A DNA stretch of 64,000 bases from an uncultured Bacteroidota bacterium (GTDB lineage: Bacteria; Bacteroidota; Bacteroidia; Bacteroidales; GCA-2748055): NCBI GenBank assembly GCA_963716765.1, contig CAVQUO010000021.1:141995-205994 (forward strand). The letters are read 5' to 3'. The translations under genes were made by a program, and so were the position numbers. Below the pieces are notes generated by a model. The model was not told where the DNA came from and made no database searches. It saw only the letters and a list, made by a program, of their open reading frames with translations. Positions 4,727 to 24,630 of the stretch are shown here, piece by piece. Every line of letters starts with the position of its first letter. Position 1 is the first letter of the stretch.

Positions 4727-7700
4727 ATGCGCTGCCAATTCAGGATGAAACTATTTGAACATAAGGCAAGCTTTACGACCCCAAAACTCAGGTGTGCGAT
4801 CCCCTTTTTTTTGTTTTTTTTACTGAACAACCTAAACGGCCAGGTACCTTCCTGGGAATGGTCTTTATCTCAATATACTGGAGCAAGCGAACTAACCAAT
4901 GATGTGGTTGCTGATCCGGCAACAGATCATATTTACATAGTTGGAACCTGGAAAAATGCCCTGAGTGCTTTCTTCCACCGCCGGGGCAAATCCTTCGACT
5001 AATTTTGCTGCACCATATGGCGGTGTTGATGGCTTTGTGGCAAAGTTTGACCAGGATGGGAATTTTTTATGGGCTTTTAAGTTGGGTGGGAATAATGATG
5101 ATAACATTTCCAGCATTGCACTGGATCCCTCAGGAAATATCTATATAGCAGGTACATTTGGAAAGGACAATAATTATTTCTCAGGGACCTCCCCTCTTAC
5201 TCCGGCCTCAACCCTTTTCAACGCTGACAAGGAGGATTTTTTTATCGCCAAGTATAACCCGGATGGAGCATTCCAATGGATTAAAAGATCCGAAACAGAC
5301 GCCGACGATATGGCGGGGCTAAGTGTGTATGCCAATGCTACAGCCGTTTATGCTACCGGTACCTATAAGAGTAATTGTGCATTTGGATCATTGTCCATAT
5401 CAAGGACTTTTGGTGCCGAGGATATGTTTCTTATAAAATACAACAGTGATGGAGATGAGCAATGGTTGATTAATGGAGGAAGCGACAAAAGTGATTATGC
5501 ATATGGTGTTACTGCAGATGAATCCAATGTTTATGTAACTGGCAATTTTTTGGGGAATCAGATGGAATTCCAGAGCACTACTGAAACAAATGTAGCCACA
5601 TCAATCAACTCCAACGATGGTAAAGAAGATGGATTTTTAATCTCTTACGATGAAAATGGGACATTTAATTGGACTACCCAAATAAAAAGCAACGAGGAGG
5701 TAGAGTGTTTTGCTATCACCATGGATAGCGATAGCCTTTATATTACTGGTGGTTTGGAGGGCCCGGCAGGCTTTCAGTTATATACAGGAAATCCGGTAAT
5801 CACTTCAGCCAACCAGGATATATTTTTCTCATCACACTCAAAAGTGAATGGTAACACAGGATGGGTTCATGCAATAGCCTGCAGGGATGGTGGAGCAGAG
5901 TATGGCCGATCTATTACCCTTAATTCTTATGGGGACCTGATAGTTGCAGGATACTTCAAGAACGACCTCTTCTTTCCTGAAGCTGTTACCCTCACTTCAG
6001 CTGGAGCTGAAGATGTATTTGTTTGCAGCTATTCAAACGCAGGTGTATTTAAATGGGCATTAAATCCCGGCTCCAATGGTGCTGATTTTGGGTATGGGGT
6101 TTCTGCAGGCTCAGACGGGTCCTTGTATCTTGGAGGCAGTTATGATAAACAAATGTTTTTTGGCGCATTTGATATTCCCGAGGATGGGGGTGAAAATTCA
6201 TTTCTGGCAAAGCTGCAAGTACCCTGTGAGGATGCTGTAGGAGGAACAGCCGCTGCCACGGAAACAGAAATCTGTGTTGGCCAAACCACGACCTTGTCTC
6301 TTAAAGCTCAATATGGTCAGATCATCTGGCAAAGCTCTCCTGCAGGTATGGATATTTGGTCTGATCTTCCCGGAGAAACATTCAATACAGTAACCGTCTC
6401 TCCAATTATTGATACTGATTACAGAGCTTATCTGAGTTCTATTAATTGTAATCCCGATTCTTCAAACATCTTATCGGTTCAGGTATTTGTTGTTCCCCTG
6501 GCCAATGCAGGCAGCGGTGGCAATGAATGTGACCTGGACTTCCAGCTACAGGCAACTCCGAGTGTGGGAACCGGAACCTGGACATGGACGACAGGCACCG
6601 GAACGGCAAGCTTTGTTCCCAATGCAAATGATCCCAATGCCAGTCAGTTACTGTCTGCTGAGTATCGGGGCCAAAGAGTTTTCCTGGAAAGAGATAAATG
6701 GCACTTGTGTAGATTCTGCAGCCATAACTGTGAACTTTTATGAGCAGCCCCTGGCCAATGCAGGCAGCGGTGGCGATGAATGTGACCTTGATTTTCAGTT
6801 ACAGGCAAATCCGAGTGTGGGAACCGGAACCTGGACCATGACTGTGGGCACAGGAACGGCAAGCTTCGTTCCCAATGCAAATGATCCCAATGCCGCAGCT
6901 ACTGTCACCGAGTATGGAGCAAAAGAGTTTACCTGGACAGAGATAAACGGCACCTGTGCAGATTCTGCAGCCATAACTGTGAACTTCTATGAGCAACCCG
7001 TGGCCAATGCAGGCACGGAGGCGATGAATGTGACCTTGACTTCCAGCTACAGGCAACTCCGAGTGTGGGAACCGGAACCTGGACCATGACTGCGGGAACA
7101 GGGACGGCAAGCTTCGTCCCAAATGCAAATGATCCCAATGCTGCAGCTACTGTCAGCGAGTATGGAACAAAAGAGTTTACCTGGACAGAGATAAACGGTA
7201 CCTGTGTAGATTCTGCAGCCATTACAGTGAACTTTTATGAGCAGCCCGTGGCCAATGCTGGAGCGGAGGCGATGAATGTGACCTTGATTTCCAGCTTCAG
7301 GCAACCCCGAGTGTCGGAACCGGAACCTGGACCATGACGTCAGGGAACAGGAACAGCAAGCTTTGTCCCAAATGCAAATGATCCCAATGCCGCAGTTACT
7401 GTCAGCGATTATGGAGCAAAAGAGTTTTCCTGGAAAGAGGTAAACGGCACTTGTGCTGATGCAGCAGCAATTACGGTGAACTTTTATGAGCAGCCCCTGG
7501 CCAATGCAGGCAGCGGAGGCGATGAATGTGACCTTGACTTCCAGCTGCAGGCAACCCCGAGTGTGGGAACCGGAACCTGGACCATGACATCGGGAACAGG
7601 AACGGCCATCATTTGATCCCCAATGCAAATGATCCCAATGCCGCAGTTACTGTCAGCGAGTATGGAGCAAAAGAGTTTTCCTGGAAAGAAGATAAACGGC

Positions 7701-10700
7701 ACTTGAGTAGATTCTGCAGCCATTACAGTGAACTTTTATGAGCAGCCCGTGGCCAATGCAGGCACGGAGGCGATGAATGCGACCTTGATTTCCAGCTTCA
7801 GGCAACCCCGAGTGTAGGAACCGGAACCTGGACCATGACTTCGGGCACAGGAACGGAAGCCTTGTTCCCCAATGCAAATGATCCCAATGCCTGCAGTTAC
7901 TGTCATCGAGTATCGGAACAAAAGAGTTTTCCTGGACAGAGATAAATGGTACCTGTGTAGATGCGGCAGCGATAACTGTGAACTTTTATGAGCAGCCGGT
8001 GGCCAATGCAGGCAGCGGAGGCGATGAATGTGACCTGGACTTCCAGCTACAGGCAACCCCGAGTGTCGGAACCGGAACCTGGACCATGACGTCAGGCACA
8101 GGAACGGCAAGCTTCGTCCCCAATGCAAATGATCCCAATGCACGTAGCTACTGTCAACTGAGTATGGGGCAAAAGAGTTTACCTGGACAGAGGTAAACGG
8201 CACTTGTGAAGGTTCTGCAGCCATAACTGTGAACTTTTACGAGCAGCCGGTGGCCAATGCAGGCACGGAGGGGATGAATGTGACCTGGACTTCCAGCTAC
8301 AGGCAACCCCGAGTGTCGGAACCGGAACATGGACCATGACTGTGGGCACCGGAACGGCAAGCTTTGTCCCCAGTGCAAATGATCCCAATGCACTGGTTAC
8401 AGTTTCTGAGTTCGGGGCAAAAGAGTTTTCCTGGAAAGAGATAAATGGCACTTGTGCTGATTCTGCAGCCATAACTGTGAACTTTTATGAGCAGCCGCTG
8501 CCCAATGCAGGCAGCGGTGGCGATGAATGTGACCTGGACTTCCAGCTACAGGCAACTCCAGTGTGGGAACCGGAACCTGGACCATGACGACAGGCACAGG
8601 AACGGCAAGCTTCGTCCCCAATGCAAATGATCCCAATGCCGCTGGTTACTGTCAGCTGAGTATGGGGCCAAAGAGTTTACCTGGAAAGAGATAAATGGCA
8701 CTTGTGAAGGTTCTGCAGCCATAACTGTGAACTTTTACGAGCAGCCGCTGGCCAATGCAGGCAGCGGTGGCGATGAATGTGACCTTGACTTCCAGCTACA
8801 GGCAAGCCCGAGTGTGGGAACCGGAACCTGGACCATGACTGCGGGCACCGGAACGGCGAGCTCTGCTCCCAATGCAAATGATCCCAATGCCACCGGTTAC
8901 AGTCTTCGAGTATCGGAGCCAAAGAGTTTACCTGGAAAGAGATAAATGGCACTTGTGGAGATTCGGCAGCCATAACTGTGAACTTTTATGAGACAGCCCC
9001 TGGCCAATGCTGGTAGCGGTGGCGATGAATGTGACCTGGACTTCCAGCTACAGGCAAATCCGAGTGTGGGAACCGGAACCTGGACCATGACGACAGGCAC
9101 AGGAACAGCAAGCTTCGTTCCCAATGCAAATGATCCCAATGCCGCAGTTACTGTCAGCGAGTATGGAGCCAAAGAGTTTACCTGGAAAGAGATAAATGGC
9201 ACTTGTGAAGGCTTCTGCAGCCATAACTGTGAACTTTTAATGGAGCAGCCTCTGCCCAATGCAGGCAGCGGTGGCGATGAGTGTGACCTGGACTTCCAGC
9301 TACAGGCAAGCCCGAGTGTGGGAACCGGAACCTGGACCATGACTGTGGGCACCGGAACGGCAAGCTTTGTCCCCAGTGCAAATGACCCCAACGCACTGGT
9401 TACAGTTTCTGAGTTCGGGGCCAAAGAGTTTTCCTGGAAAGAGATAAATGGCACTTGTGCTGATTCTGCAGCCATAACTGTGAACTTTTATGAGCAGCCC
9501 CTGCCCAATGCAGGCAGCGGTGGCGATGAGTGTGACCTGGACTTCCAGCTACAGGCAAGCCCGAGTGTGGGAACCGGAACCTGGACCATGACATCAGGCA
9601 CAGGAATGGCCACATTTATTCCAAGTGCAAATGATCCGGCAGCTACCGTTAGCGTAAGCGAATTTGGAAGCAAGAAGTTCACCTGGAAAGAAGTGAATGG
9701 GACTTGCAGTTCTGATTCCACTGCCCTTGTAATATTTACTGAGCCTCCAGTATCTGATGCCGGTCCGGATGGGGAGATTTGTATAAGCGACAAAAGCTAT
9801 AATATTTCAGGACCAAGCTTCATCGATGGCTCCATTATCTGGAGCAGTAGTGGTGATGGCACTTTTAATGCAACAGACATTAATAATCCTGCCTACGCTG
9901 TCGGCTCAGAGACGGGCAGTGTATTCCTTATAAAAACAGTGATTAGCTCAAACTCCTGTCCAGATGCGGTCGACTCCATGATCCTTATACTTACTCCTGA
10001 ACCGCTTAGTTATGCAGGTTCTGATGCGGACATATGTGTCAGCACCGGCAGCTACCAATTTAGTGGTTCAAGTTCAGCCAATGGGAACATAAAATGGAGC
10101 AGTAGTGGGGAAGGTCGTTTCGATGATCCATATATTGAGAACCCCAATTATAGCATTGGGGCTGAGACTGGCGAAGTGCACCTATTAAAAACAGTGACCA
10201 GCCCTGGATCCTGTGCCGATGTGTCAGACTCCATGGTCCTAACAATTTACAATGATCCGCGTGCCGATGCAGGCACTGGGGGAGCACAGTGTGGCCTGGA
10301 ATTCCAGTTATTGGCGATTCCAAGCAGAGGAATGGGGACATGGAGGATGGTTTCAGGTCCAGGTAGTGCTTCCTTCAGCCCTTCTGCAAACCAACCGAAT
10401 GCTCTGGTATCAGTCAATCAGTTTGGTATTTATAAGTTTGAATGGACAGAAACAAACGGCATTTGTTCGGATGGGAACTCGGTGGAAATTAACTTTTTTA
10501 ATGAGATCCTTGTGGACGCAGGATCTGACGGAGAAGTTTGCGGTTTGGAATTCGACCTAAAAGCGACAGACATTTCCAGGACAGGCTACTGGGAGGTAAT
10601 TTCCGGGCCGGGCGAGTTTCGTATAGTCCATCTGACACCTCACATATCGTTTCCATATCTGCCGATCTCTTCGGTTCCTATTTATTTCAATGGAACGCAC

Positions 10701-11260
10701 AAATAGGTGATTGTTCAGGAAGTGATCAGGTCGAGGTGATATTTTATGAGCAAGCCGTGGCTGACGCCGGGCCTGACCAGGTTTTGGATTTTGAATTCAC
10801 CACTTACCTGAATGCCACCATGCCAGACTATGGAAGCGGTGTATGGAGAATGGAACAGGGAGGCGGGCTGATACAGGACATGAATGATCCGCTTTCAAAA
10901 GTGACTGAACTTTCTCTGGGCGAAAACGAATTCAGATGGACCATTCAATCAGCAGTTTGTGAGGATGTGTCTGACTATATGGTCATTACAGTAAATGATA
11001 TTGAATCCTCAACAGTGATTACCCCCAATGGAGATGGACTTAACGACTACCTTGTTTTTCCGGGGGTTGATCAATTGCCAGGCAGTGAATTTATGGTTTA
11101 TAACCGATGGGGTACTGAAGTATTCCGTAATGGTAATTATCAGAATGATTGGGATGGAAGGGACCGGGATGGCCGTGAACTAATCCCCGATACTTATTAC
11201 TATATCTTAAAGATTGAGCCAGAACGAATTATAAAAGGATTTGTAGAGATCAGAAGATAG
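4727..11260 (+). CDS. large T9SS-secreted surface adhesin: N-terminal SBBP-like beta-propeller, tandem PKD/Ig-like repeats, type-B CTD (gliding motility-associated C-terminal domain); many frameshifts
   Basis: Repeated D.F.AKY..DG...W blades; 83-aa repeats; C-terminal VITPNGDGLND...VYNRWG.EVF...YQNDWDG...TYYYIL..GFVEIRR. Confidence 0.9.
6496..9740 (+). repeat. 13 tandem ~249-bp (83-aa) near-identical coding repeats
   Basis: Unit PLANAGSGGDECDLDFQLQATPSVGTGTWTMT.GTGTASFVPNANDPNA.VTVSEYGAKEFTWKEINGTC.DSAAITVNFYEQ; CCAATGC anchors near 6500, 6751, 7003, 7251, 7500, 7752, 8001, 8252, 8501, 8751, 9002, 9255, 9503. Confidence 0.92.
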
Positions 11261-11262
11261 CC

Positions 11263-12184
11263 ATGATAAAACGTATCATATATATCATCTTTTTATTGGG
11301 TATGGGGACCTCAGCTTATTCTCAATTATATCCCCTGCTGGATCAATACCATTACAATGGTTTGGCAATTAATCCGGCATTTGCAGGCAGTCAGGAGGCC
11401 CTTAGCATTGGAATATATTCAAGGAACCAATGGGTGGGCTTCGAAGGAGCTCCTAAAACAAATACCCTTTCCTTACACAGTCCTTTGAGGAATAAAAAAA
11501 TTAACCTCGGTCTGATTGTAATGGGTGATAAGTTAGGTTCCAAAAGAGAAACAGGTTTTTTACTGAACTATGCCTACCGAATTGATCTGGGAAAAGGCAA
11601 GTGGTCCCTTGGACTGGCCGCAGGATTGACCAGCATATCCACCGATATAAATTCTTTAAGATACTCCGACACCGGAGACTTGCTTTTGCAAGATCCGGCA
11701 GAAAGATCCCTGCTACCTAGAATTCTCCTGGGGTACATATTATTATACCGAAAGGTTGAGGGTGGGCTTCTCAATGCCTCTGTTCTTAAGTCAAAATACA
11801 AATGATGGAAATGGTGCATACAAATTGGACTTCAATCTTGCCGCCGCAAACTATATGCTTACAGCAGAATATCTATTCACTATATCGGATGTGCTTGATA
11901 TCCTGCCTACTCTTCTTTTAAAATCAAATCCTGCCAACAACACTCAGTTGGATTTGCAATGCAACTTTATAGTAAAAGACAGGATATGGTTAGGTGCCAG
12001 TTTCAGGACAAACGGTAGTATATCTGCCCTACTGCAATTACAAATAAATTCCCAGTTGAGATTGGGGTATTCATATGGCTATGAACTTTCCGAACTCAGT
12101 TTGTACCAGCATGGATCACATGAATTAATGATACAATACAACTTCAAATATTTACTTGAAGTAATTAGTCCCAGAAATTTTTAA
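11263..12184 (+). CDS. type IX secretion system membrane protein, PorP/SprF family (one frameshift)
   Basis: QY.YNGLAINPAFAGS...RNQWVGFEGAPKT and C-terminal LRLGYSY.Y..S.L....GSHE; directly follows a type-B CTD gene. Confidence 0.92.
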
Positions 12185-12194
12185 GACCTGGAAA

Positions 12195-13783
12195 GTGAAT
12201 AAAACCTTGCAAATTCTGTTGCTATTTATCGTCTTCACTCCTTCAAACCTGGTGTGTCAATCTCACTATGAAGTATCGCGAGCAAAATTCTAGCAGTTCA
12301 AATTATGATGAATTTTCACCAACGCTTTATAAGGATCAGATTGTTTTCTGTTCCGACATTGAACATGAACTTTTATTCACCTATCAAGAATAATAAGAAG
12401 AATAGTCTGTTTAGCTCTTTAAAGTGGATTTTAGATTCTGCAGGTGCTACTCACATCTCCCAATTTAGTCCCGACCTTGTAACCCCCTTCAATGATGGTC
12501 CGGCCTCCTTCCATCCGGATAGCAACCTTGTGGTATATTCAAGAAATCTGGACGCTAAGGCAAAGCCGAAGAACATGCTTGACCTAAGTAACAAGCTGGG
12601 ACTTTTTTTTGCAGAGCTGATTGATGGTGAGTGGATTCCCATTGAAGCATTTCCCTTTAACAATGCAGACTACTCCATAACAACGCCATGTTTTAGTACA
12701 CATGGAGATTCTCTTTATTTTGCATCAGATATGCTTGGAGGCTTTGGCGGGACTGATTTATACTTTTCAGTAAAATCTGACAGCGCCTGGAGTATTCCGG
12801 TGAATCTTGGTGAAAAACTGAATACCCCCGGAAATGAGGTTTATCCATTTGTGGCTTTGAATGGCGATCTTTTCTTTGCCTCGGATGGACTTGGCGGTCT
12901 TGGGAAAAAAGATATTTTTCTTACGCGAAAGTCTGGATCAGATTGGATCACCCCTGTTCATCTGGACGCGCCCATCAATTCCCCGGCAGATGATTTTGGC
13001 CTGGTCACAAATAAGGAATTTTCTGAAGGTTATTTCTCCACCAGTAGGGGAACAACAGATGACATCTATCATTTCACAACTGTCATACCACAACTTTTTA
13101 ACTGTGACACACTTCTCGTTAATAATTATTGTTTTGAATTCTGGGATGATGCCTACCTCGGAGTTGACTCCCTACCCGTCACCTATGAATGGGAGTTTAG
13201 TGACGGAACAAAGTTAAGAGGCCTGAGTGTGGAGCATTGTTTACCAGGAGCTGGGCAGCACTGGGCCAAGCTCAATATTATTGACAGCACCACCAGCTCT
13301 GTCTTTTTCACACAAACATCGATGGAGTTTGAACTCGAGGACTATGTTCAACCCTACATCACCTGTAAAGATACGGGAATCATTAACAATACAATGGAAT
13401 TCAGCGGATTACAATCCAATCTTCCAGGCTACTCCATTGAAGAATACATTTGGGACTTTGGAGAAGGGAAGCTTGATACCGGGGCCGTGGTGAAACACCA
13501 ATTTGATAAAGCAGGTGAGTATGCGATCAAGCTTGGTCTGAAGGCATATTCAGAGGGATTGCCTGATAAAGAAATTAGATGTGTAGTAAAACCTATCACC
13601 TTGCTTGAAGACAACCAGGCACTTGCCATGCATCTCTCTGGTATAGATATACTTGTTGCAAAAGAAATAGAATCCTCAAAGCTTAAAGGAATTGGATATG
13701 GCGAATCAAAACCGATTTCCACAAACAGAACTGAGTAGGGCAGAATGATGAATCGCAGGGTTTAGTTTCTCATTCTAAATTAA
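12195..13783 (+). CDS. PorE-like protein: PD40/WD40 propeller + PKD domains, with degraded OmpA-like C-terminus (ORF stops at 13738)
   Basis: LYFASDMLGGFGGTDLY, PVNLGEKLNTPGNEVYPF, INSPADDFG; YEWEFSDG and YIWDFGEG PKD motifs; GYGESKPI..NRTE*GR..NRRV*FLILN*. Confidence 0.8.
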
Positions 13784-13810
13784 AACAAAGTACTAATTGT
13801 TTTTACCATT

Positions 13811-14804
13811 ATGGGATTCTTCAGATATTTATGCTGCCTCATATTTATAATAGTATTACCCACCCTGGAGGTGTTCCCTCAACAGGCCCCTGCTAAGGAT
13901 GAGAATATTTCTTATCTGGTAACCTTTGGTGCCAATGCTGAATCAAGCTGGGGAGATGATGATTTTTGTCAGACCTTATTTTTTATGGTACCCCCTTCTT
14001 ATACCGATCCGTTTTATATAAGGGTGTATGACCCGGATACTGGGGGCGAATTGGATGAGCAAAAAGGAGAATTCAATACAACTGTAAAAATCTCAATTTA
14101 CGGAGGTAAAGATGCCTGGAATAATATAGATGCCAGGCAGGTTGACCCCATTGGGAATTATAAGAGCGGCAATATGCTTGCATCCCGTAGTTTCGGTACA
14201 GATGGATCGATATGACAATGGCTGGTATACCTTTGGTCCTTTTATCCAACAGGAAGGTGAATTTGTTGAAAAACTTGGGGGATATGTCTTTAAAGTTATC
14301 GTTCAGGGCATCGATGGAGATGACGGAAACCTCTACAGATTCTTTATGAGTATGAATAAAGATGAAAACAAAGCCATAGAGGGGGGAAATGTGTTTACCT
14401 ATGAATATACCTTCAGACTCTCAAATAGGCAGGAAGACATTTCTCAAATCTATCCCTTTCTGGATGATAAAGTCACTTCAGTGAAGATTCTTAATTATGA
14501 TTGGGACAATGATGGTTTTATCAGAGTTGTTTCAGTATCCAAAAGGGGGGAATTGTGCACAATATCGAATGATGGTGATTGGAAAGAGAACGAATATCTA
14601 ATCACGAAAGATGAATTAAATACTTCCATGGAGATCCAGTTCATTAAGAACAAAGAAATATTGGTGAAAAATAATAATGTTGTTGTTATTGTTCAGAATC
14701 AGTATGGAGAATCCCTTCCCTTTTATGTGATTCCCATTGGGGAAGACCAGTATATAAATCCCTCTCTGCGGATGAAATCCATCGAAAGAAAACAAACACC
14801 ATGA
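13811..14804 (+). CDS. uncharacterised secreted protein (paralog A of 21413-22444; frameshifted)
   Basis: Signal-peptide-like start, then APAKDENISYLVTFG...WGDDDFCQ...GDDGNLYRFFMS...YEYTFRL; colinear with 21413-22444. Confidence 0.8.
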
Positions 14805-17800
14805 GAACGCGGCTATTTATCCTCTTCGTTTTACTAGCATTTTCTTCAAGGGCAATAGGACAACAATATTTCTTCAGGCAGTACAGCAATACGGAAGCGT
14901 TTGCACCAATCGTTCATATACGATGTTAACCAGGATAGCCTGGGGTATCTCTGGGTCGGTACACCTGAAGGGATATACCGCTTTAATGGATTTGACTTTG
15001 AACACTTTAGTGTGGAAGATGGCCTGGCAAATGATTTCATTACTAAAATTCACGTAGCCAGGGATGGTAAAATCTGGATAGGACATCAAAACGGTGCGGT
15101 TTCGCTTCGATTAAAAAATGGCTTTGTACGATTTAGTGAACAGTCTGATAACCAGGGATCAGTAACTGATCTGAACTGAAGATGAAGAGGGTTTGATTTG
15201 GATCGCAAGCCAAAACCAGGGACTAAGCCTTATTGATAAGGATCTGAAAATTAAATCCCTGAAGTATTCCTGATGAAGTAGAATCCTTATCTCAGATTGA
15301 ATCGATAGGAAACAATCAGTTTCTTTTAGGTTCTCAGGAATCCCTGGTTCTGACAAGATATCGAATTGAAAACTCATCCATGGAAGTCCTGTCTGATTTT
15401 AAGGAATATCCCGGATCTAAAGTGGCCGGAATTTTCCCGGATGCATCTGGTGGATATATTATTGTTAGTCAGAATGATGGCGTTTATCACCTGAACACGA
15501 ATCCTGGGTCCGGGGAATACAAATTCTCGACGATAGATACGCAAAAATAGAGATGGATCACTTGACAATCTGCAGGGCGGCTTACTGGATGGGAATAGCA
15601 ATTTATGGGTCTATTCCAATGGAAACGCTTTGCTTCAGTACAGCTTAGCAGAAGACCACGAGTATATCAGAGTTGCCAGGATATCAATCACAAACGGACT
15701 TGCTTCAGATAATGTACGTTCCATGTTTGAGGACCTCGAAGGAAATCTCATGGATTGGTATGTTCGGGCAAGGTTTGCTACGATATGTAGATAGCAACCT
15801 TAAAATCAACAGATATGAAGAAGAGGAAACCAATGAAATCCATGCCCTGGCAGCCTATGATGGCGATTTTTTGTTTGCATCCGGAAATGATCTTCTGAAA
15901 ATAAACAGTTCTGGTGACTCCATTCTGAATTCCTATCCGCTTCCGGTCAGAAGTTTAGGCGATAAAGTGAACGCTGTTTATGCTGATGATGAGGGAAGAA
16001 TCTGGCTTGGATATGAACAATCAGGCCTTTTTGTTGCAGAATCTTATGGCAAAGCGTTTAAGCCTGGGCAAGATTTCCAAAGACTTACTGGCCAACTCGG
16101 TAAATCATATATGCGGTAAAGGCGAGCATATCTGGATCGGTACCAAAAAGGGAATCTGCAAAATAAACATCAAGGACCCGGCGCTCATCCCTCGCTGGTT
16201 TACGACTAATGAAGGATTACCACATAATAACATCAGGCAACTCCATATTGACACAAAAGGCAGGCTCCTTACATCGCAACTCTGTGTAACAAAATATACT
16301 ACATCCTGGATAATGATGAAATCTGGCTCCTTAGAATTCAGCAATTTGGGGGCCTTAACCTCGATCGCATCTTTCACAGAAGATCAGAATGGGAACCTCT
16401 GGGCCGGAAGTCTTGGCCATGGGGTTTGGATGATCAAGGCGGATAGCCTCAGGAACTACACCAGGACCTCTGGTTTAATTTCAGATTTCTGTTACAGTAT
16501 GGCATTAACAAAAGATGGATTCCCCATTATCGCACATATAGGGGGAATATCACTTATTAACAGCGAAAAAAACATTATTAAAACATTCCAGCCGGTATGA
16601 GGGAGTGAACAGCTCCGTAGAATTTTTTCCAAACGCCATATTAAGCGATCGTTTGGGCGAATGTTTGGTTTGGGACCTCAGAGGGTCTGATTAAATACAG
16701 CTCTGGTATCTCCTTAGGTGGATTGATGGCTCCAAAGTTACAAATCAATAACGTTCTTCTTGATGGAGATACCCTGGACGTAAGAAAATGGTCCCATCAT
16801 TCTTAAACCAGGCCAATATGAACTAAGTGTGGAATATATAGGAATCAGTTTTACTAATCCGGAAAACGGCACTTATTAAAGCACCCTGCTTGAAGGCCAT
16901 AATCAAGCCTGGTCCGCTCCAACCTTCAGTCGCAAAGTAACATTCGAGCGGCTTGAACAAGGAGATTATTCTTTTAAGATCAGGGCTTATAATGAGAATG
17001 ATATCAAAAGTGAAATGATTTCAGCATTTCAATTAAAGATTAAAAAACCAGTTTACATGTCAATCTGGTTTTATGTAGTCATTTTATTGCTTTTGGGAAT
17101 TGCTTTTTATACGACCCTGAGGATCCGGGAGTGAAACTCACATAATGGTCCAGGAACGCTTATTGAAAAATATTGATGATAAAACCAAAGAAATTATTGT
17201 CAAAGAAGAGATTATTAAAGAGCGGAAAAAGGTTGAAAAAGTATTAATTGAGGCAAAGTCCAAGGCTGAATTATCTGAGAAACTCAAAACTTCTTTTCTA
17301 CGAGAATATGTCTCACGAAATCAGGACCCCGATGAATGCTATTGTTGGGTTCTCTCAAATGCTTGACAGGGTAGATCTTCCAGATGAAACCAGGAATGAT
17401 TTTATTAAAAATATATCCATTAATGCTGAATCGCTTTTAAAAATGATTGATGATATTCTGGACCTCTCAAAGCTGGAGACAAATCAATTGGAAATAATAG
17501 AGCAGAACTGTCAGGTGAATGGGCTGATGCAGGATTTAAAATCGGTCTTCGGAAATAAACTAAAATCGGAGGGTAAAGAGGAAATAAATTTTGAAATGAG
17601 CTGCCCGGGAGAAGATGAGCTATCCATTATTACCGACCGGATCCGCCTAAAACAGACTCTTAACAATCTGCTGGATAACGCCTTAAAATTCACTGAATCC
17701 GGAAAAATTTCTCTCTCTCGGCTACTATCTGGATGAAAAAAAAATAACATTTTATGTGGAAGACAGCGGAATAGGGCTTTCAGAAGACAAAAAATCCATT

Positions 17801-17983
17801 GTTTTTGACCTGTTTAGAAAGGTTGAAGATGATCGCTTTAAACTATATCGGGGTACGGGAATGGGGCTCACACTGGCAAAGTATCTGGTGGAAAGAATGG
17901 GCGGTGAAATAAATGTGGATTCAGAAGTAGATATAGGTTCTAAATTCTATTTTCATCTGCCATTAAATCCTCAGGCTAGCTAA
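14801..17983 (+). CDS. two-component regulator propeller + Y_Y_Y sensor histidine kinase (HisKA + HATPase_c); many frameshifts
   Basis: QDSLGYLWVGT.EG..RFNG...DGLANDF blades, TM segment near 17070-17120, NMSHEIRTPMNAIVGF H-box, NLLDNALKFT, DSGIG, GTGMGL. Confidence 0.88.
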
Positions 17984-17997
17984 ATGTGGGAAGGCAG

Positions 17998-18045
17998 GCT
18001 TCACTGCATTTTCCACAAAGTTCTGGATCAGCATCTTCGGGATTT
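17998..18045 (-). pseudogene. 48-bp remnant of LytS-type kinase N-box region (IPKMLIQNFVENAVK)
   Basis: 46/48 identical to 22851-22898; both mismatches are synonymous Asn codons on the minus strand. Confidence 0.85.
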
Positions 18046-18229
18046 TGAATCTCTAATGAAAGAATATCCTGATTTGTTGTTAGAGATTGCAGCCCATACC
18101 TATCATTCGGATACTTTTGAAGCCAACCTGAAAACTTCCAGGAAATGGGCTCAGGAAATAGTAGACTTAATGGCATTGGATAAAGGAAGTATATTGAATT
18201 CCCGGATTGAGGTTCTGATTCTTAACTAA
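18046..18229 (+). pseudogene. remnant of an OmpA-like domain (C-terminus of a PorE-like gene)
   Basis: LMKEYPDLLLEIAAHT...EANLKTS.KWAQ.IVD...NSRIEVLILN* resembles OmpA-like domain motifs and the FLILN* end at 13783. Confidence 0.55.
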
Positions 18230-18231
18230 GT

Positions 18232-21200
18232 TTATATTTCAAAGCCCATAAAAATCACATCATCAATCTGATCAAGCTCTCCCTTCCAGGAATGAAAACG
18301 ATCATTTATAATCTCTGAATGTTTATTGAAGGGCAGGTGCTGAATTTCATTCAGCAGGGTTTTGAGACCGGATGTTTTAAATTTCTTCCCCCGGGGGCCT
18401 CCAAACTGATCAGGATAACCATCTGAGTAAAGATAAAGCTTATCGCCCTTTTGCAGATCAAAGACCTTTGTTTCAAATTCCTTGCTGGGCTCTTCATACC
18501 TTCCGCCGATTGAGAACCTGTTTCCCTGAACATAAGTCTGTTCGCCTTTGCGATAGATTATCAGCGGATTCATGGCCCCTGCCATCCTAAACTGCATCGT
18601 TTTCTTATTATAAAATCCTGCCACCATATCCATCCCATCAACAGAAGAAGAAGTTCCAAGGTTGCGATTCAGCGCAGATTTTATTTCCCTGTCAAGTAAC
18701 TGGAGCAACTGGGATGGAGAATCCAGACTTTCATTGCTGCAGATGTCTTTTATAAGGGTAATTCCTATCATTGACATAAAGGCTCCGGGAACACCATGTC
18801 CTGTACAATCAGCGCAAACTATGGCAAAGGTATCCTCATCGAGGTCATCGAACCAATAAAAATCACCGCTGACAATATCCTTGGGCTGATAAAATACAAA
18901 TGCCCTGCTGAAGGTCTCCTCCAGTTTCCCAACTGGGGGCATAATACTGGTCTGTATTCTCTTGGCATAATTAATACTCTTGGTGATCTCCAAATTGATG
19001 TCCTCAATTTCCTCCTTTTGTTTAATCACCTCACTTGTACTCTCATCCAATTTCTTTTGAAGTAAGGCCTGGAAGCGGATCTGCTTTCTCTCCCGTGCTT
19101 TCAGAATTATGTAAAAGGTCAGCAGGACGAGTAAGAATATGCTAATATAAAACCAGCCTGAAAAATATATTGGTTTTTTGATCTTCAAAACAAACGCAGC
19201 ATCTATCTCCTTTGACAGCCCCTTCTCGTTAAAAGCTCTGATCCTGAACATATATTCCCCATGACCTACCCGATCATATACTACCCTTCTTGCCTCCCGA
19301 TAATCGGACCAGCTTTTGTTATATCCCTCCAGTTTTGTCTGATATAGGACCATCTCAGGATTGGTAAAACTAATCCCGATGTATTCAACTGTGATTTCGT
19401 ACTGACCAGCTGGGAGAACAATTCGCCCCCCACCTATTTCACGCTCTATTCCGTCAACCAGCAGCCGCTTGATGCTTAGCTTTGGTGCAAGCATATTTTT
19501 ACCAGAGTTGCCAGACATGTAACTGACCAGCCCTTCGGAAGTCCCGAACCAGATCTGCCCGCTTGCTTCCTTAGCTACCGCATTGGGATAAAACTCCATG
19601 GAGCTTTTTATGCCCTCCTTGCGACCATAACGTGTAATTCGGTTTGACTCGGGATCAATGACAGAAAAACCGCCCCGGTGACTGACTACAGGATGGCCAT
19701 CCTGGGAAAGAATCAAACTGTAGCAAAAATCTGAGCTTAGGCCGGTAGCAACACTGTAATTCAAATTTTCTCCATCCGAAATCCGCCAGACCCCATTACC
19801 CTGGGTTCCTGTCCACAGACTCCCATCGCTTCCCTCTGCAATCGAAGTTAAGGTTGTAAAAGGTCCCATTTGGCTATTTTCAAGAACTCCCGTTTCTCCG
19901 TCAAAAGTGATATAATGGATTTCGCTGCACAAAGTAGATAGCAAAACCCTTTGCTCCTTGTCTATATAAAGGTGCCTGACGTGATTATGAGGAAGCCCGT
20001 CATCAGTTGTGAACCACTTTTTATCTTTATTTTCAGTAGAATATCGACACACACCCCCTTTGCTTGCGATCCATATTGTTCCTGCCAGCCCGGTAATATG
20101 ATTAATGGAATTTGCAAGGTCATTCTTTGAAATGAATATACGTCTGAAGTCTGATTTATCATGCTCTTTGAGATACAAACCGGATTGTTCAAATCCCAGC
20201 CATAATGAACCATCATCCGCCAGGTAAATACTGTTTACCAGGTCACCGGAAGGAGTATCGGGTAGAGAATACCTGTCTATTACAGAGTCTCCATTGCAGG
20301 CAATTTGCACCAACTCATCCTGGATCACAGTTAGCAAAGTCTCACCCTCTACTAACAGGGCTTGCACCCGATTCATATCTTGTTTGTGGCCAAATTGATA
20401 AAAAAGAAAGGGTGTTTTCTGCGTATTTCAACAGGCCTTCTCCATACATACCCAGCCAGAGGTTCCCTTCACTATCCTTGTACACACATCGAACCAAATT
20501 GGAAACCAAACCTTGCTCCCGGGTGATCACTTCGCGACTTATTATTTCCCCTAGGTCTCCAAATTTGTATTTCAATAAACCATTTCCCATTGAGACGAGC
20601 CACAAGCTTGCCTGATCATCCCAAAGCCCCCCCTGTATGTTGTCAAGTGAACCATCAGAATTGAGATCCATCGATTCCAGTGAATACTCCGAACTGGAGG
20701 GATCAAAACGAAAGTCATAAAACCCGTAATCCTGGCTAATCACATAATGTGATCCATGATCACCGGGAATAATGGCTATCACTTTTGAACCTTCATACCC
20801 TTCGAGAGTTTCAAGAACAGACATCTCACCTCTTGCAGGCTTAAACTCAGCCAGGTAAAGATGCTCTTGAGAACCGAGGAGGAAATGATTATTACCCAGG
20901 GTTGCAATCTGAGATAGCGGTTCATTGGTTAAGGAAAACCGGACAGAGGTATCCACTTCTAATCCAGTGAAAGTTATAATGCCACCATTTTGAATGGTAG
21001 CCCAGATCCTCCCTTTTGCATCCTGGCTAAAACTAGTTAAGGATCCGGAGGAATCGGAACCCTTGTAAACCACATTAAATTCATTTCCGTCATGCACTGT
21101 GACCGACCCATTGCCATGTCCAACCCACAATTTGCCGCTGGAATCTGTAAATACTTTTGCAGCAAAATTGTCTGCTAAACCATCCTGCATGGTGTAGTAA

Positions 21201-21400
21201 TCAAACTCAATCCCGTCAAACCTGTAAAGGCCTTCACCGCTTCCTATCCACAAGTACCCTGAACTGTCCTGAACAATAGAATAAATGAAGGTATGCTTAA
21301 GCCCCTGATCATTGTTATATTGCCTGAAAAAGTATTCCTCGCCATCTGCAAAGGCTGTGATTCCCAAGAGAAGGGAAATTATAAATCGCTGCATCTTCAT
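18232..21400 (-). CDS. two-component regulator propeller + Y_Y_Y sensor with SpoIIE/PP2C phosphatase output (one frameshift near 20390)
   Basis: Propeller blades, Y_Y_Y (YQTKLEGY...GEYMFRIRAFN), TM, coiled coil SINYAKRIQ, KDIVSGDFYW, ADCTGHGVPGAFMS, DGMDM, LYSDGYPDQFGG, QIDD. Confidence 0.92.
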
Positions 21401-21412
21401 TACGGAATACTA

Positions 21413-22444
21413 TTATTTTTGAACGGGTCTCATCTTTAAAGTAGGGTTATAGACAGGGCGACCACCAATGGGAATCACATTAAAAGGAAGAGATTCTCCA
21501 TACTGGTTCTGGACAATAACCACTACATTATTATTTTTTATGGCGACTGATTTATTTTTGATAAACTGTACTTCCATGGAAGTATTTAATTCCTGTTTCG
21601 TAATGGGAAAGGAATTGGTCTGCCAATCATTGTCACTGGAAATATCACAAAGTTCCCCTCTTTTGGCAACAGAGACGAGCCTTATAAAACCATCATTGTC
21701 CCAATCGAAATTAGATATTTTCACAGAGGTCACCTGATCGTCGAGATAAGGATATATCTGCGAAACATTCTCCTGGTTATTCGAGAGTCTGAAAGTATAT
21801 TCGTAGGTGAAAATATTTCCGCCTTCAATGGGCTGGTTCTCATCCCTGTCGGTACTCATGTAAAATTTGTAAAGGTTTCCATCATCCCCGCTTATCCCTT
21901 GTGCGATGATCTTGAACAGATAGCCTCCCAGCTTTTCCGAATACTCACCCTCCAACTGGTTAAAAGGTCCGAAGGCATACCATTTTTGATCGTAGCGAGC
22001 CTCCTGGGCGAAGTTTTTGGAAGCAAGTAAATTCCCACTATCGTAGTTCCCTTCCGGATCCACAGCCTTTGCATCATCATTGGTCCAGACACCCTGTCCT
22101 CCATAAACAGCAAATCGGACTGAGGTGTTAAATGCACCTTTCATCTCGTCAAGTTCACCGAAAATATCCGGATCATATACTTTGATATAGAAAGCTTCTT
22201 TGTAAGCTTCAGGGACTGTAAAGAAAAAGATTTGGCAAAAATCATCATCTCCCCAGGATTTGTCGGCATCTGCACCAAAAGTCACAAGGTATGGTATATT
22301 CTCGTCCGCTGCCGGGGCTGATTGAGAAACTATATCAGTAAAGCGGAAAATGAAAATGATAAGCAACAGATTAAAAAGAAGCATACTTTTCTTCAGAATG
22401 CCCTTTGATATCATCACAAAAATCATTGGGTTCAATATCCTCAT
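21413..22444 (-). CDS. uncharacterised secreted protein (paralog B of 13811-14804)
   Basis: Intact 343-aa ORF with hydrophobic N-terminal segment; strongly similar to 13811-14804 along its length. Confidence 0.88.
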   Translation of the reverse strand: MRILNPMIFVMISKGILKKSMLLFNLLLIIFIFRFTDIVSQSAPAADENIPYLVTFGADADKSWGDDDFCQIFFFTVPEAYKEAFYIKVYDPDIFGELDEMKGAFNTSVRFAVYGGQGVWTNDDAKAVDPEGNYDSGNLLASKNFAQEARYDQKWYAFGPFNQLEGEYSEKLGGYLFKIIAQGISGDDGNLYKFYMSTDRDENQPIEGGNIFTYEYTFRLSNNQENVSQIYPYLDDQVTSVKISNFDWDNDGFIRLVSVAKRGELCDISSDNDWQTNSFPITKQELNTSMEVQFIKNKSVAIKNNNVVVIVQNQYGESLPFNVIPIGGRPVYNPTLKMRPVQK

Positions 22445-22569: not shown

Positions 22570-24630
22570 TTAGATTGGAATCCTTACACTTACGATAGTC
22601 CCCTTCGGAAGTCCATCCTCGCCCTTCAGATCTTTAATTTCAAAGTCAATCTTTATTTTTTCGAGTTTCTCAAAAATCTGTAAGGATTTTTCAATCATAT
22701 GAAGTCCACTTCCAGTCCCAAAACTCTGTAGTTCTGCTGCACTTTTCCTGCCTACACCGTTATCCTCAACCACAAGATGAAGATATGTTTCAGCCACTTC
22801 AGAATATATCCTGATCAGTCCCGGTCTGTCAGTCAGATGACGGATGCCATGCTTCACTGCGTTTTCCACAAAATTCTGGATCAGCATCTTCGGGATTTGG
22901 ATCTTTTGCTGCAAAACATCATCAAGTTCAATGCTATAATTCAGCCGATCTCCCATGCGGATCTGCTCCACCGAAAGATAATCCGCTACAAAAGCCATCT
23001 CCTCTTTCAGCGTGATGGTCATCCGTTCAGAGTTTTCCAGTGTGGTTCTCACTAAGCGTGAAACTTTGGCCAGGTAGGATTGGGCATGCTCCTGATCGCC
23101 TTTGTGATAGAAGCTCGAAATATTTGACAGGGCATTAAAAAGAAAATGGGGATCCAGCTGCTGCATCACATTGGTAAGCTGATAATGTAAGATCTGTCTT
23201 TCCGAAGCCAGGCGCTTTTCAATCCTTTTTCTTTGGAGGTTAGTGATGAAGCTAAATATCAGATAGTAAGCACAAAATGAAAATAATAGGATCAGGAAAC
23301 GGAAGGGATAGAAAGGATTCCTGGAATAGGCTAAAAGTATATTCTGATTCCCACGGTAAACGTTTATATAATGGGTATGATCCTTTGTAAATGGACTAAT
23401 TAGCGGGGAAGACTCATTGTAGCCCAAATCCAGCTCAATCCCATGTCTGAAATCAGACTGCAGTATATGGAGCTTGGAAAGATCTGTAATAAAAATATGT
23501 TCTGATAATCCATCTCCATTCACATCCATGGGATAATATATTTCCGGGTAAAAGGATCCCTCCACCGTCAGGCGGCCTTTCTCCTGTAAAGTCTCATCCA
23601 GCCAGATAATTTGATGACCGTCAGCTAAAGCAAATACCCCTTCCCTTTGTTGATCAATTGAAATCAGCTCAACTTGTTGCTCACTCAGCAACTCCTTGCA
23701 AGTGATAACCTGAAGGGAATCGTTCAGCCATTCCCAGACCTCAACCCGGTTAAATATCCCGGTCTGAGTCTTTGTGTGGTAGCAACTTACCAGGAGCTGG
23801 CGCCGGTCTTTTTTCAGAGCCAAGACTTTCAGGTAAGCAGGGCTCCCGGGGTAAGAAACAGGCTCCGACTTAAACTGCAATTTTTGATCATAGATTAAAA
23901 GCCAGGCACAGGTGTCAGAAATTATTGTCTCCTGATTTGCCAGGTTTCCCGGGGCAGATACCTTTCCTGTAATCTCCATGACACCATCCTGATCCAGATC
24001 CAGACAGAGCGGCCACGCCACATTATTGCCCAAAGTCATTTCCTGCACCATCAGCTCTTCCGTCTTCCCGTCCAGCACATAAAGTTTCCGGGGCCTTAAT
24101 GTAAATCCGGCCCGGATGCTAAAAAAGATGTCATCCCAACCATCCCCGTTCAAATCCTGGGGTGTTCCGAAATTTATAAGCCAGTCCTGATGATCATTGT
24201 ACATCTCAACCCTGTCGACCGGAATATGGAGAAAGGTTCCTTTTTTCTGCAAAGGTTCAATGAGATGTAGCCAAATGGAATCCTGAAAATAGGTCAAGGT
24301 TACGATCTCGGTAAAGCCATCATGATCGGTATCAGCAAAGAGGCCCTTGGTCGATTCAATCCAATCCCCATTCAGGTTCCACTGATTAACGATCTCTCCA
24401 TTGGCCCGCTCTAAAGTTATGGCAGGTACCGGATTCCCGTTTTTATAACGAATGATTTCACTTTCGCCATCTCCATCCATGTCCTGAAACGCCCGGGCCA
24501 CAAGCTTGAAATTAACTTTATCTCCCACAAGTTTCAGCCGGTATTTATTTGACTCAATGGGTAGCAGAATATAAAGTATGACCGCAAAGACGGCCGATAC
24601 AAGGGCAATTAAGATTTTTTCCCATTTCAT
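22570..24630 (-). CDS. LytS/YehU-type sensor histidine kinase with periplasmic FG-GAP/VCBS-like repeats
   Basis: QQLDPHFLFNAL H-box, LKEE..FV..YL..EQ.R, IPKMLIQNFVENAVKHG, EDNGVG, GTGSGL; DMDGDG/DLNGDG/DLDQDG/DVNGDG Ca-binding motifs. Confidence 0.92.
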   Translation of the reverse strand: MKWEKILIALVSAVFAVILYILLPIESNKYRLKLVGDKVNFKLVARAFQDMDGDGESEIIRYKNGNPVPAITLERANGEIVNQWNLNGDWIESTKGLFADTDHDGFTEIVTLTYFQDSIWLHLIEPLQKKGTFLHIPVDRVEMYNDHQDWLINFGTPQDLNGDGWDDIFFSIRAGFTLRPRKLYVLDGKTEELMVQEMTLGNNVAWPLCLDLDQDGVMEITGKVSAPGNLANQETIISDTCAWLLIYDQKLQFKSEPVSYPGSPAYLKVLALKKDRRQLLVSCYHTKTQTGIFNRVEVWEWLNDSLQVITCKELLSEQQVELISIDQQREGVFALADGHQIIWLDETLQEKGRLTVEGSFYPEIYYPMDVNGDGLSEHIFITDLSKLHILQSDFRHGIELDLGYNESSPLISPFTKDHTHYINVYRGNQNILLAYSRNPFYPFRFLILLFSFCAYYLIFSFITNLQRKRIEKRLASERQILHYQLTNVMQQLDPHFLFNALSNISSFYHKGDQEHAQSYLAKVSRLVRTTLENSERMTITLKEEMAFVADYLSVEQIRMGDRLNYSIELDDVLQQKIQIPKMLIQNFVENAVKHGIRHLTDRPGLIRIYSEVAETYLHLVVEDNGVGRKSAAELQSFGTGSGLHMIEKSLQIFEKLEKIKIDFEIKDLKGEDGLPKGTIVSVRIPI

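Follow-up and report, generated by a model that had tools for sequence, protein, structure and literature searches.

The 64,000-nucleotide stretch of DNA analysed here (the window), which comes from an uncultured Bacteroidota bacterium of the order Bacteroidales, carries two convergent gene pairs in which a gene for a small exported protein, hereafter the partner, is followed by a gene for a large membrane sensor with a double beta-propeller ectodomain (Table 1). Partner and sensor go together across genomes in both directions, the cytoplasmic output of the sensor has switched repeatedly between a phosphatase and a kinase, and a predicted complex places the partner on the first propeller of the sensor; the reading preferred here is that the partner may be a dedicated periplasmic co-receptor. 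A first, sequence-only reading of this DNA had described the pairs as paralogous modules with tightly coupled genes and swapped outputs, which the analysis bears out. The genes share an ATGA overlap at 14801-14804 in module A and are separated by 12 bp (21401-21412) in module B. Identity between the partners is 58% in the first 123 aligned residues and rises to 72% in the final 194 (69% DNA identity over 881 bp of their genes), and the sensor ectodomains are colinear and about 50% identical over 518 readable columns. Sensor A ends in HisKA and HATPase_c domains with H-box, N-box and G-boxes present, and a domain scan found neither REC nor HTH in it; sensor B ends in a SpoIIE/PP2C domain with metal-binding motifs. 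The number of modules needs correction, however: the genome has three rather than two, the third being of the PP2C type and lying at 35103-39289 of contig C30 with PorP/PorE-like pieces of its own.

Table 1. Coordinates of the features discussed, in positions of the window
Feature	Position	Strand	Description
Partner A	13811-14804	+	about 330 amino acids (aa), single frameshift near 14200-14206; predicted periplasmic two-beta-sandwich protein; intact ortholog at locus L102
Sensor A	14801-17983	+	two Reg_prop propellers, Y_Y_Y, one transmembrane (TM) helix, HisKA, HATPase_c; about a dozen frameshifts
Sensor B	18232-21400	-	two Reg_prop propellers, Y_Y_Y, one TM helix, coiled coil, SpoIIE/PP2C; one frameshift near 20400
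Partner B	21413-22444	-	intact open reading frame (ORF), 343 aa; signal peptide predicted to end before Gln41
Cargo of type-B type IX secretion system (T9SS), adhesin-like	4745-11260	+	frameshifted in the assembly; start inferred
PorP/SprF-family outer-membrane barrel	11263-12184	+	one frameshift near 11718-11733; TIGR03519 match
PorE-like protein	12195-13738	+	PD40 propeller and two PKD domains; frameshifted near start; start position read from the sequence
OmpA_C remnant, C-terminal half	13604-13780	+	end of the PorE-like protein
OmpA_C remnant, N-terminal half	18035-18175	+	between the convergent sensors; tblastn E 1.4e-4 with the PorE-like protein of locus L020

A partner protein outside recognised families

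As first described, the partner is acidic (45 Asp and Glu against 31 Lys and Arg; computed pI about 4.4) and has no recognised domain (no Pfam or NCBIfam match at E<=0.01); 128 homologs gave only stray weak matches to these databases. Homologs of similar length number 2536, the profile search yielding 664 clusters at 50% identity, and the partner occurs in 43 of 301 Bacteroidales genomes and in 12 of 401 genomes taken phylum-wide. It had been called secreted, but the prediction is a periplasmic location, because 80 of 81 partners have a hydrophobic leader with a Gln-x-x-Pro pattern behind it and no C-terminal domain (CTD) for T9SS was detected in them.

The AlphaFold2 model of partner B is all-beta and confident (pLDDT 92.6) and predicts a fold of two beta-sandwiches. 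The best structural matches are jelly rolls (the Tk-SP C-domain, a porphyran carbohydrate-binding module (CBM), GOLD and SIDT2) with Z of at most 7.3. VIA-align returned no match of Z>=8; the best Z of 7.3, for 9ues (rmsd 2.7, 98 aligned) and 8xmz (rmsd 3.1, 102 aligned), is tied with GOLD and SIDT2. Modelled likeness to jelly rolls at this level assigns the partner to no family. Foldseek gave 20 matches at E<=0.001 for the whole model, all with a TM-score of at most 0.24, and no match for domain 1 alone, and a sequence search of the PDB returned nothing credible (best E 0.17 for the single sequence). The designed TPR proteins that the partner profile matched in the PDB were judged compositional. 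An identity with LipL32, an idea that came from an Atlas lead of 0.90-0.91 only, was not supported, PF12103 being found in none of the 128 members and hhalign giving a probability of about 0.1% against one LipL32-family sequence.

Linkage of partner and sensor in both directions

Gene order was followed in the best 80 of at least 563 GTDB matches, 78 of which have downstream DNA; L086 and L098 were scored by hand, and upstream counts are likewise out of 78. The next gene after the partner encodes a propeller protein in 75 of the 78 loci (48 with PP2C output, 16 with kinase output and 11 with an output that is cut off or split), the exceptions being L056, L085 and L098, and the gap between the two genes is at most 50 bp in 69 of 74 measured loci, with a median of 6.5 bp. 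In the reverse direction, a profile of the 80 linked ectodomains was run against the same 301 Bacteroidales genomes, and all 49 matches of at least 600 bits lie directly after a partner; below this band come a contig-edge fragment (527 bits) and the best unlinked full-length sensor (489 bits). Outside the genome of the window, at least 51 of 60 partner matches are linked among the sensor rows tabulated, three candidates per genome having been scored. In the two Saccharicrinis genomes that have a partner copy lacking a sensor, another copy is linked to one, and intact modules are found in the named isolates Thermophagus xiamenensis and Labilibacter sediminis and in two Labilibaculum species. 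The conserved linkage to Reg_prop/Y_Y_Y sensors with varying outputs and to PorP/PorE-like loci, proposed at the outset as a check, is thus borne out by the neighbourhoods of homologs.

The nearest unlinked propeller/PP2C subfamily (L132-L151, e.g., L148:1638-3983) has a different gene in the corresponding place: a gene for a protein of 779-807 aa precedes the sensor in 14 of 20 loci, and the four such proteins scanned all contain TPR, two of them with a caspase-like C14 domain. Judged by gene order and domains, this looks like a sister system with a different dedicated partner.

Repeated switching of the sensor output

The proposal that the output of the sensor is modular is sustained by trees built from the ectodomain only. 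On a FastTree tree of 84 sensors the output needs four changes, all forced by well-supported branches, and on a 41-row tree that includes both window sensors it needs five; the latter is a hand-picked subset chosen after the 84-row tree, with the kinase group defined by domain content. In it sensor B, a PP2C protein, groups with six kinases, sensor A among them (SH-aLRT 99), and monophyly of the kinases is rejected (approximately unbiased test, p 2.4e-36). The phylogenies thus indicate that the output has switched between PP2C and kinase at least four times, gains and losses being indistinguishable on these unrooted trees. Left out of trees and identities were L100, L111, L112 and L114 (taken as duplicates), L118 (the broken own copy) and loci without a sensor longer than 1000 aa. 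The kinase sensors show two distinct types of post-membrane linker, some carry a fused REC domain (L022, L058; the L102 kinase has none), and no DNA-binding domain was found in those scanned.

Both outputs stand side by side in two Labilibaculum species (L041:5379-12785, L050:9088-16491), where one partner is followed by a kinase sensor and then by a phosphatase sensor, the ectodomains of the two being sisters on the tree.

A predicted partner-sensor complex

A structural model of partner and ectodomain, another check proposed at the outset, passes, with the partner docking on propeller 1. The input comprised the intact partner of locus L102 and only the two propellers of its sensor (616 residues in all), with own alignments of 80 rows from which L019 was left out, its intact sensor sitting upstream of the partner. 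The ipSAE scores were 0.66, 0.67 and 0.54 (median 0.66), against 0.00 in all three controls; the pass mark is reached by 116 of 157 solved and by 2 of 215 mismatched pairs and is rough here, with own alignments. The runs share at least 86% of contacts, with a partner pLDDT of at least 78. This model supports binding of the partner to the sensor, short of demonstrating it, and together with the two-way linkage it upholds the view of the partner as dedicated to its sensor.

In the model, domain 1 of the partner contacts two loops per blade of propeller 1. The docking face appears from sequence periodicity to be the entry face, since in each blade one contact loop precedes the first strand and the other belongs to the hairpin after it. 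The homolog BT4663 is reported to be dimeric and to bind disaccharides on the entry faces of its propellers (PMC5121618). The modelled docking residues are P44, G76, G97-L99, K/R103 and the loop G119-P120-x-N122-x-x-E125 on the partner, and on the sensor an aromatic ring around the shaft of propeller 1 (F/Y18, F59, F/M251, Y/F299). In 80 linked sensors the interface is conserved at F/Y18 (95%), F59 (81%), Y/F299 (93%) and G300 (96%), while the same four columns hold K (50%), G (65%), N (45%) and E (65%) in 20 unlinked sister sensors; both window sensors retain F18, F59, N77, Q117, Y/F299 and G300. On the partner side P44, P120, N122 and E125 are kept in 99, 100, 91 and 94% of the linked set and in at most 33% of 63 distant fusions, a set that is more divergent overall, whereas D26, D51, D59, D148 and N150 are kept in 97-100% of both sets alike. 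Propeller 2 of the linked sensors has a conserved cluster of its own (H451 94%, C539 85%, Y540 95%, H554 100%; e.g., L102:7777-9948:-) that is absent from unlinked sensors, and this His/Cys/Tyr/His cluster is possibly a metal or small-molecule pocket serving as a second input.

The adhesin-PorP-PorE-like cassette

The sequence-only reading had also placed an adhesin-PorP-PorE cassette in one run with module A. Such a cassette does lie upstream of module A, and not of module B, but its third member is PorE-like rather than PorE (133.8 bits against a cut-off of 600 for NF052230). The cargo has an SBBP propeller, about 14 Ig-like repeats of about 83 aa and a CHU_C/TIGR04131 CTD (47.9 bits, cut-off 35). 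The PorP protein scores 133.5 bits with TIGR03519 (cut-off 90.55) and stands at 77% and 67% to its intact ortholog. A type-B cargo gene is thus followed by a PorP/SprF gene in a genome with the T9SS translocon (SprA, 1896 bits). Of the 78 loci in the set, 70 have PorP or PorE-like genes on the upstream side of the partner, and 50 have cargo, PorP and PorE-like genes together there; the direct neighbour is PorE-like in 56 and PorE-like or PorP in 67. PorE-like proteins combine PD40 and PKD domains (L102, L020) and, among those tested, have OmpA only in long forms (L020, L126); 28 of 59 are at most 520 aa long, too short for OmpA_C, and this short form ends in PKD domains. A regular expression, the only method applied, found a lipobox-like pattern in none of 59, and those scanned gave no TPR match.

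In one subgroup of cassettes (L075, L076, L078, L081, L092, L110, L117) a protein of about 1100 aa with a HATPase match is encoded just upstream of the cargo gene. HisKA and HATPase were confirmed in that of L110, and the protein is a possible cognate or regulator.

The OmpA_C domain of the PorE-like gene in the window seems to have been split and displaced, its C-terminal half ending the PorE-like ORF and its N-terminal half lying 4.3 kb downstream, past the kinase; L102 has neither remnant. Short contigs of sequencing run X1 are identical to the window at 13665-13853 and 18137-18323, and a contig of a related strain joins 13353 directly to 18049.

The partner domain in other proteins

In distant homologs the partner domain comes first in proteins with arrays of up to 15 PKD domains, comes last in membrane-anchored proteins with long Pro/Thr linkers, TIG or Big_1 domains (P0162, P0167, P0176, P0181, P0184, P0187, P0201), or follows a BlaR1-type M56 peptidase. 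In Skermanella (L131:9433-18579) the PKD form lies between a FecR-domain gene and an adenylate cyclase gene with HAMP, and modules of this kind also occur in other genomes (L119, L152-L215). Among 26 metagenome loci with the domain (of 71 returned), 11 of which share one record prefix and are not independent, a FecR/Ig gene is present in 19, and a related sensor, whole or in part, in 12 (eight kinases, two cyclases, two ectodomain only; dCache-HAMP confirmed for L160 and L165). Other PKD forms (L122-L124) have no FecR/Ig or Cache-sensor neighbours. Since PKD forms adjoin dCache-HAMP kinases or cyclases, gene order indicates that the domain also accompanies a second receptor family, Cache, the output of which swaps as well. 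No description of a periplasmic module of PKD, FecR and adenylate cyclase was found in the literature, where a mention in a table could be missed.

A candidate downstream target

The PP2C domain of sensor B matches SiaA (NF038263) with 158 bits over the phosphatase region, on a 714-aa C-terminal piece and against a cut-off of 700. In P. aeruginosa SiaA is reported to dephosphorylate SiaC at T68 (10.1101/674879), and by analogy the PP2C sensors may act on SiaC-type proteins. Such proteins are encoded at four places in the genome of the window, away from the modules, and in all 43 partner-positive genomes against 132 of 301 Bacteroidales overall, related genomes not being independent. SiaC directly follows the sensor in L129 only, downstream genes not having been scanned systematically, and DUF6272-SiaC genes follow the sister sensors of L135 and L145.

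The family, although characterised in Pseudomonas, is often represented by 10 to 14 or more matches per genome among these 132 Bacteroidales.

What the partner may do

The comparisons establish that the partner and a single ectodomain subfamily accompany each other, whichever of the two is taken as the starting point, and that this ectodomain carries mostly PP2C, otherwise a histidine kinase with or without REC. Beyond this, partner domain 1 is predicted to cap the entry face of propeller 1, sitting on the aromatic ring around the shaft. Distant homologs also keep a separate acidic surface (D26, D28, D51, D53, D59, D148, N150, D207, N265), to which Ca2+ or a further protein may bind, plausibly the PorE-like one with its PKD tail. 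As in Porphyromonas gingivalis, PorP would be the holder of both the adhesin of type B on the outer side and the PorE-like protein on the inner side; PP2C versions of the sensor would dephosphorylate SiaC-type proteins encoded elsewhere and kinase versions would feed REC proteins. The partner would thereby be a dedicated periplasmic co-receptor that relays the status of the adhesin anchor to the sensor, a reading given a probability of about 0.45. It is favoured because in P. gingivalis PorE binds PorP, which in turn holds type-B cargo (PMC9143113), because the direct neighbour of the partner gene is usually PorE-like and encodes, in its short form, a protein with PKD domains at its end, and because fusions of the partner domain to PKD arrays exist elsewhere. 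That the partner binds the sensor, which this reading has in common with the first two alternatives below, is likely. The full trans-envelope chain is a more doubtful proposition: a T9SS type-B adhesin, PorP and a PKD-tailed PorE-like protein would act through a periplasmic protein ligand of a new family on a propeller sensor of the hybrid two-component system (HTCS) type, and from there on a Ser/Thr phosphatase with a SiaC partner switch or on a histidine kinase, the same domain, tipping PKD stalks for dCache-HAMP kinases or adenylate cyclases in other phyla, being a general sensor-engaging module.

Several observations weigh against the anchor relay or weaken its support. The 600-bit band of the reverse test is partly circular, its profile having been built from linked sensors, and only three candidates per genome were scored. 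Partners without an adjacent propeller sensor exist (L056, L085, L098, L107, L108; the last two are both in genome G490, where L107 has no sensor and L108 precedes a TPR-PP2C gene), and genome G696, the completeness of which is not given, has a partner and the cassette and no sensor of the subfamily (best 417 bits). The upstream cassette is missing at module B and in 8 of 78 loci, in two of which the upstream sequence is shorter than 700 bp. Partner, sensor and PorE-like protein show much the same correlation of pairwise identities with one another (Spearman 0.65-0.67), and partial correlations of 0.37 for partner and sensor and 0.44 for partner and PorE-like protein do not favour the sensor as the partner's mate. 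The excess of conservation at the modelled interface is small (0.74 against an average of 0.70 in the partner, 0.51 against 0.43 in the sensor), and the model comprised the propellers without Y_Y_Y, membrane or the likely dimer. Docking on propeller faces is common in general. The presence of SiaC is weak support, as SiaC is widespread. Finally, the partner is far more conserved than the ectodomain, which also fits a fixed chemical ligand; their mean identities are 59% (81 rows) and 32%, the former inflated by the choice of most loci by partner similarity. The PorE-like protein averages 36% (59 rows), PP2C 44% and the kinase region 49%.

It is possible instead that the partner is a ligand-binding co-receptor, the acidic site of which takes a diffusible cue (Ca2+, a glycan, a wall fragment) and shows it to the sensor with no contact to the anchor; the cassette would then be linked as a regulated target or by a shared transcript. 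The linkage and the complex model fit this equally; further points for it are the near-invariance of the acidic motifs across distant homologs, the resemblance to CBM, PPC and GOLD jelly rolls, and the location of the domain at the tips of PKD, TIG, Big_1 or Pro/Thr stalks and behind an M56 peptidase, which are typical places for ligand binding. Cassette-free modules such as module B are accommodated as well as by the anchor relay. However, structural likeness with Z below 8 reflects a common arrangement and identifies no ligand, and a diffusible cue leaves unexplained both the direct neighbourhood of PorE-like or PorP genes in most loci and the partners that stay with the cassette after loss of the sensor (L056, L085, L098).

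Less credit is given to the idea that the partner caps the sensor constitutively, helping it to fold, shielding it or keeping it silent until the cap is titrated away or degraded, in a CpxP-like logic, the real stimulus acting at propeller 2 or being envelope stress. The predicted site on the presumed ligand face of propeller 1 and the subfamily-specific cluster of propeller 2 would suit such a role, which is nevertheless improbable; it accounts neither for the acidic surface, which is separate and conserved more widely, nor for the fusions at stalk tips. Still less probable is a role of the partner in assembling or building the type-B cargo/PorP/PorE-like anchor with no action on the sensor, co-transcription being all that connects their genes: the three loci that keep partner and cassette without sensor, genome G696 and the higher partial correlation with the PorE-like protein speak for it, but every subfamily sensor in the reverse test lies beside a partner, cassette-free partner-sensor pairs exist (module B included) and the complex model passes.

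Integrity of the window copies

At variance with the description in the first reading, partner B is the only intact ORF of the four; partner A and both sensors are split by single-base insertions. The window comes from a 4.36-Mb assembly (G000) with completeness rated at 65%. These frameshifts are likely to be assembly errors, because rpoB of the same genome is broken into 11 pieces, ORFs are short genome-wide (25 random 20-kb chunks have a median of 177 aa, five loci of the same genus one of 342 aa), module A is intact in the same-genus genome G523 and related contigs lack the extra bases. The intact copy (locus L102; 73% DNA identity over 4102 bp) comprises cargo, PorP, a 474-aa PorE-like protein, a 334-aa partner and a 1061-aa kinase, to which sensor A is 64% identical over the ectodomain. 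The extra base at 20400 is missing from related-strain contigs of runs X2 and X4, and that at 14898 from one of run X2; most of the indels are +1. Seven DNA sequencing runs carry this DNA in small shares and yield short contigs, and no RNA run is listed for it. That module A is a decaying pseudogene, so that the contrast of two outputs in the window is non-functional, is very improbable: sensor A has about a dozen frameshifts against one in sensor B and displaced OmpA_C remnants flank the module, but the state of rpoB, the predominance of +1 indels, the intact ortholog and the contig without the extra base at 14898 speak against decay, and the family-level result is independent of this copy.

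A scan for promoters and terminators was at chance level (41 against 33.4 +/- 5.3 expected, and 11 against 13.1 +/- 3.4). A LytS-type histidine kinase with FG-GAP repeats is encoded at 22570-24630 (-), 125 bp upstream of partner B on the same strand; such a kinase was not seen directly upstream of the partner in related loci.

Comparison with known signaling systems

HTCS typically join HisKA, HATPase, REC and an AraC-type HTH in one protein. The sensors described here have the ectodomain of HTCS of the BT4663 type (two seven-bladed Reg_prop propellers, Y_Y_Y and one TM helix) and, in module A, HisKA and HATPase domains. They differ in lacking a fused AraC-type HTH (sensor A stops after HATPase, the L102 kinase has no REC, those of L022 and L058 have REC but no HTH, and sensor B ends in PP2C), in having PP2C as the commonest output, in the T9SS-cassette context and in a propeller 1 face that is predicted to be taken by a protein. 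An ectodomain known as a direct sugar sensor would thus, in this subfamily, use a dedicated protein on the same face, for which the complex model names residues for mutation, and its output switches between two phosphorylation chemistries. No description of the partner/propeller-sensor module, including Y_Y_Y/Reg_prop with SpoIIE, was found in the literature, in which a mention in a table could be missed.

For SiaABCD of P. aeruginosa the likeness lies in a membrane PP2C protein related to SiaA and in the SiaC homologs of all partner-positive genomes. The PP2C domain is far below the SiaA cut-off, however, the ectodomain is a propeller, and siaB, siaC and siaD are not part of the module: in the window, module B is followed by the convergent sensor A, and the SiaC loci lie elsewhere in the genome. 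With PorE-PorP-PG1035 of P. gingivalis the cassette has in common that genes for a type-B CTD cargo, a barrel of the PorP family and a protein with a PD40 propeller stand in a row. P. gingivalis PorE is described as a TPR-WD40-CRD-OmpA_C lipoprotein, while the proteins found here have no recognisable lipobox or TPR, have two PKD domains and are often short; the paper on the PorE complex contains neither 'sensor' nor 'signal transduction' (PMC9143113). If the cassette proves to be physically connected, the type-B anchors of T9SS would serve as signal inputs in addition to tethering, Bacteroidota would possess a way of sensing surfaces comparable to NlpE-OmpA-Cpx, and there would be a first input for the many SiaC-type proteins found in environmental Bacteroidales.

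Accessory proteins that link the outer envelope to an inner-membrane sensor are known elsewhere. NlpE together with OmpA is reported to signal surface adhesion to CpxA (10.1101/2022.10.18.512811), and QseG to bind and activate QseE (PMC12691602). NlpE and QseG are lipoproteins that act on kinases, whereas the partner is predicted to be soluble, matches no family and works with kinase and PP2C outputs alike; the likeness claimed is one of logic. In VtrA/VtrC a periplasmic co-component and a single-pass membrane transducer are encoded by overlapping or abutting genes (10.1101/2022.04.08.487670), and the close spacing of partner and sensor genes conforms to this arrangement. The Vtr co-component is reported to be lipocalin-like and fast-evolving, and the output binds DNA; here a slowly evolving partner, modelled as a double beta-sandwich with jelly rolls of Z below 8 as its nearest structures, is paired with an enzyme output, PP2C or kinase. 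Although the components do not qualify as HTCS, SiaA, PorE, VtrA/VtrC or LipL32 by the features compared, the logic matches that of accessory-protein sensing.

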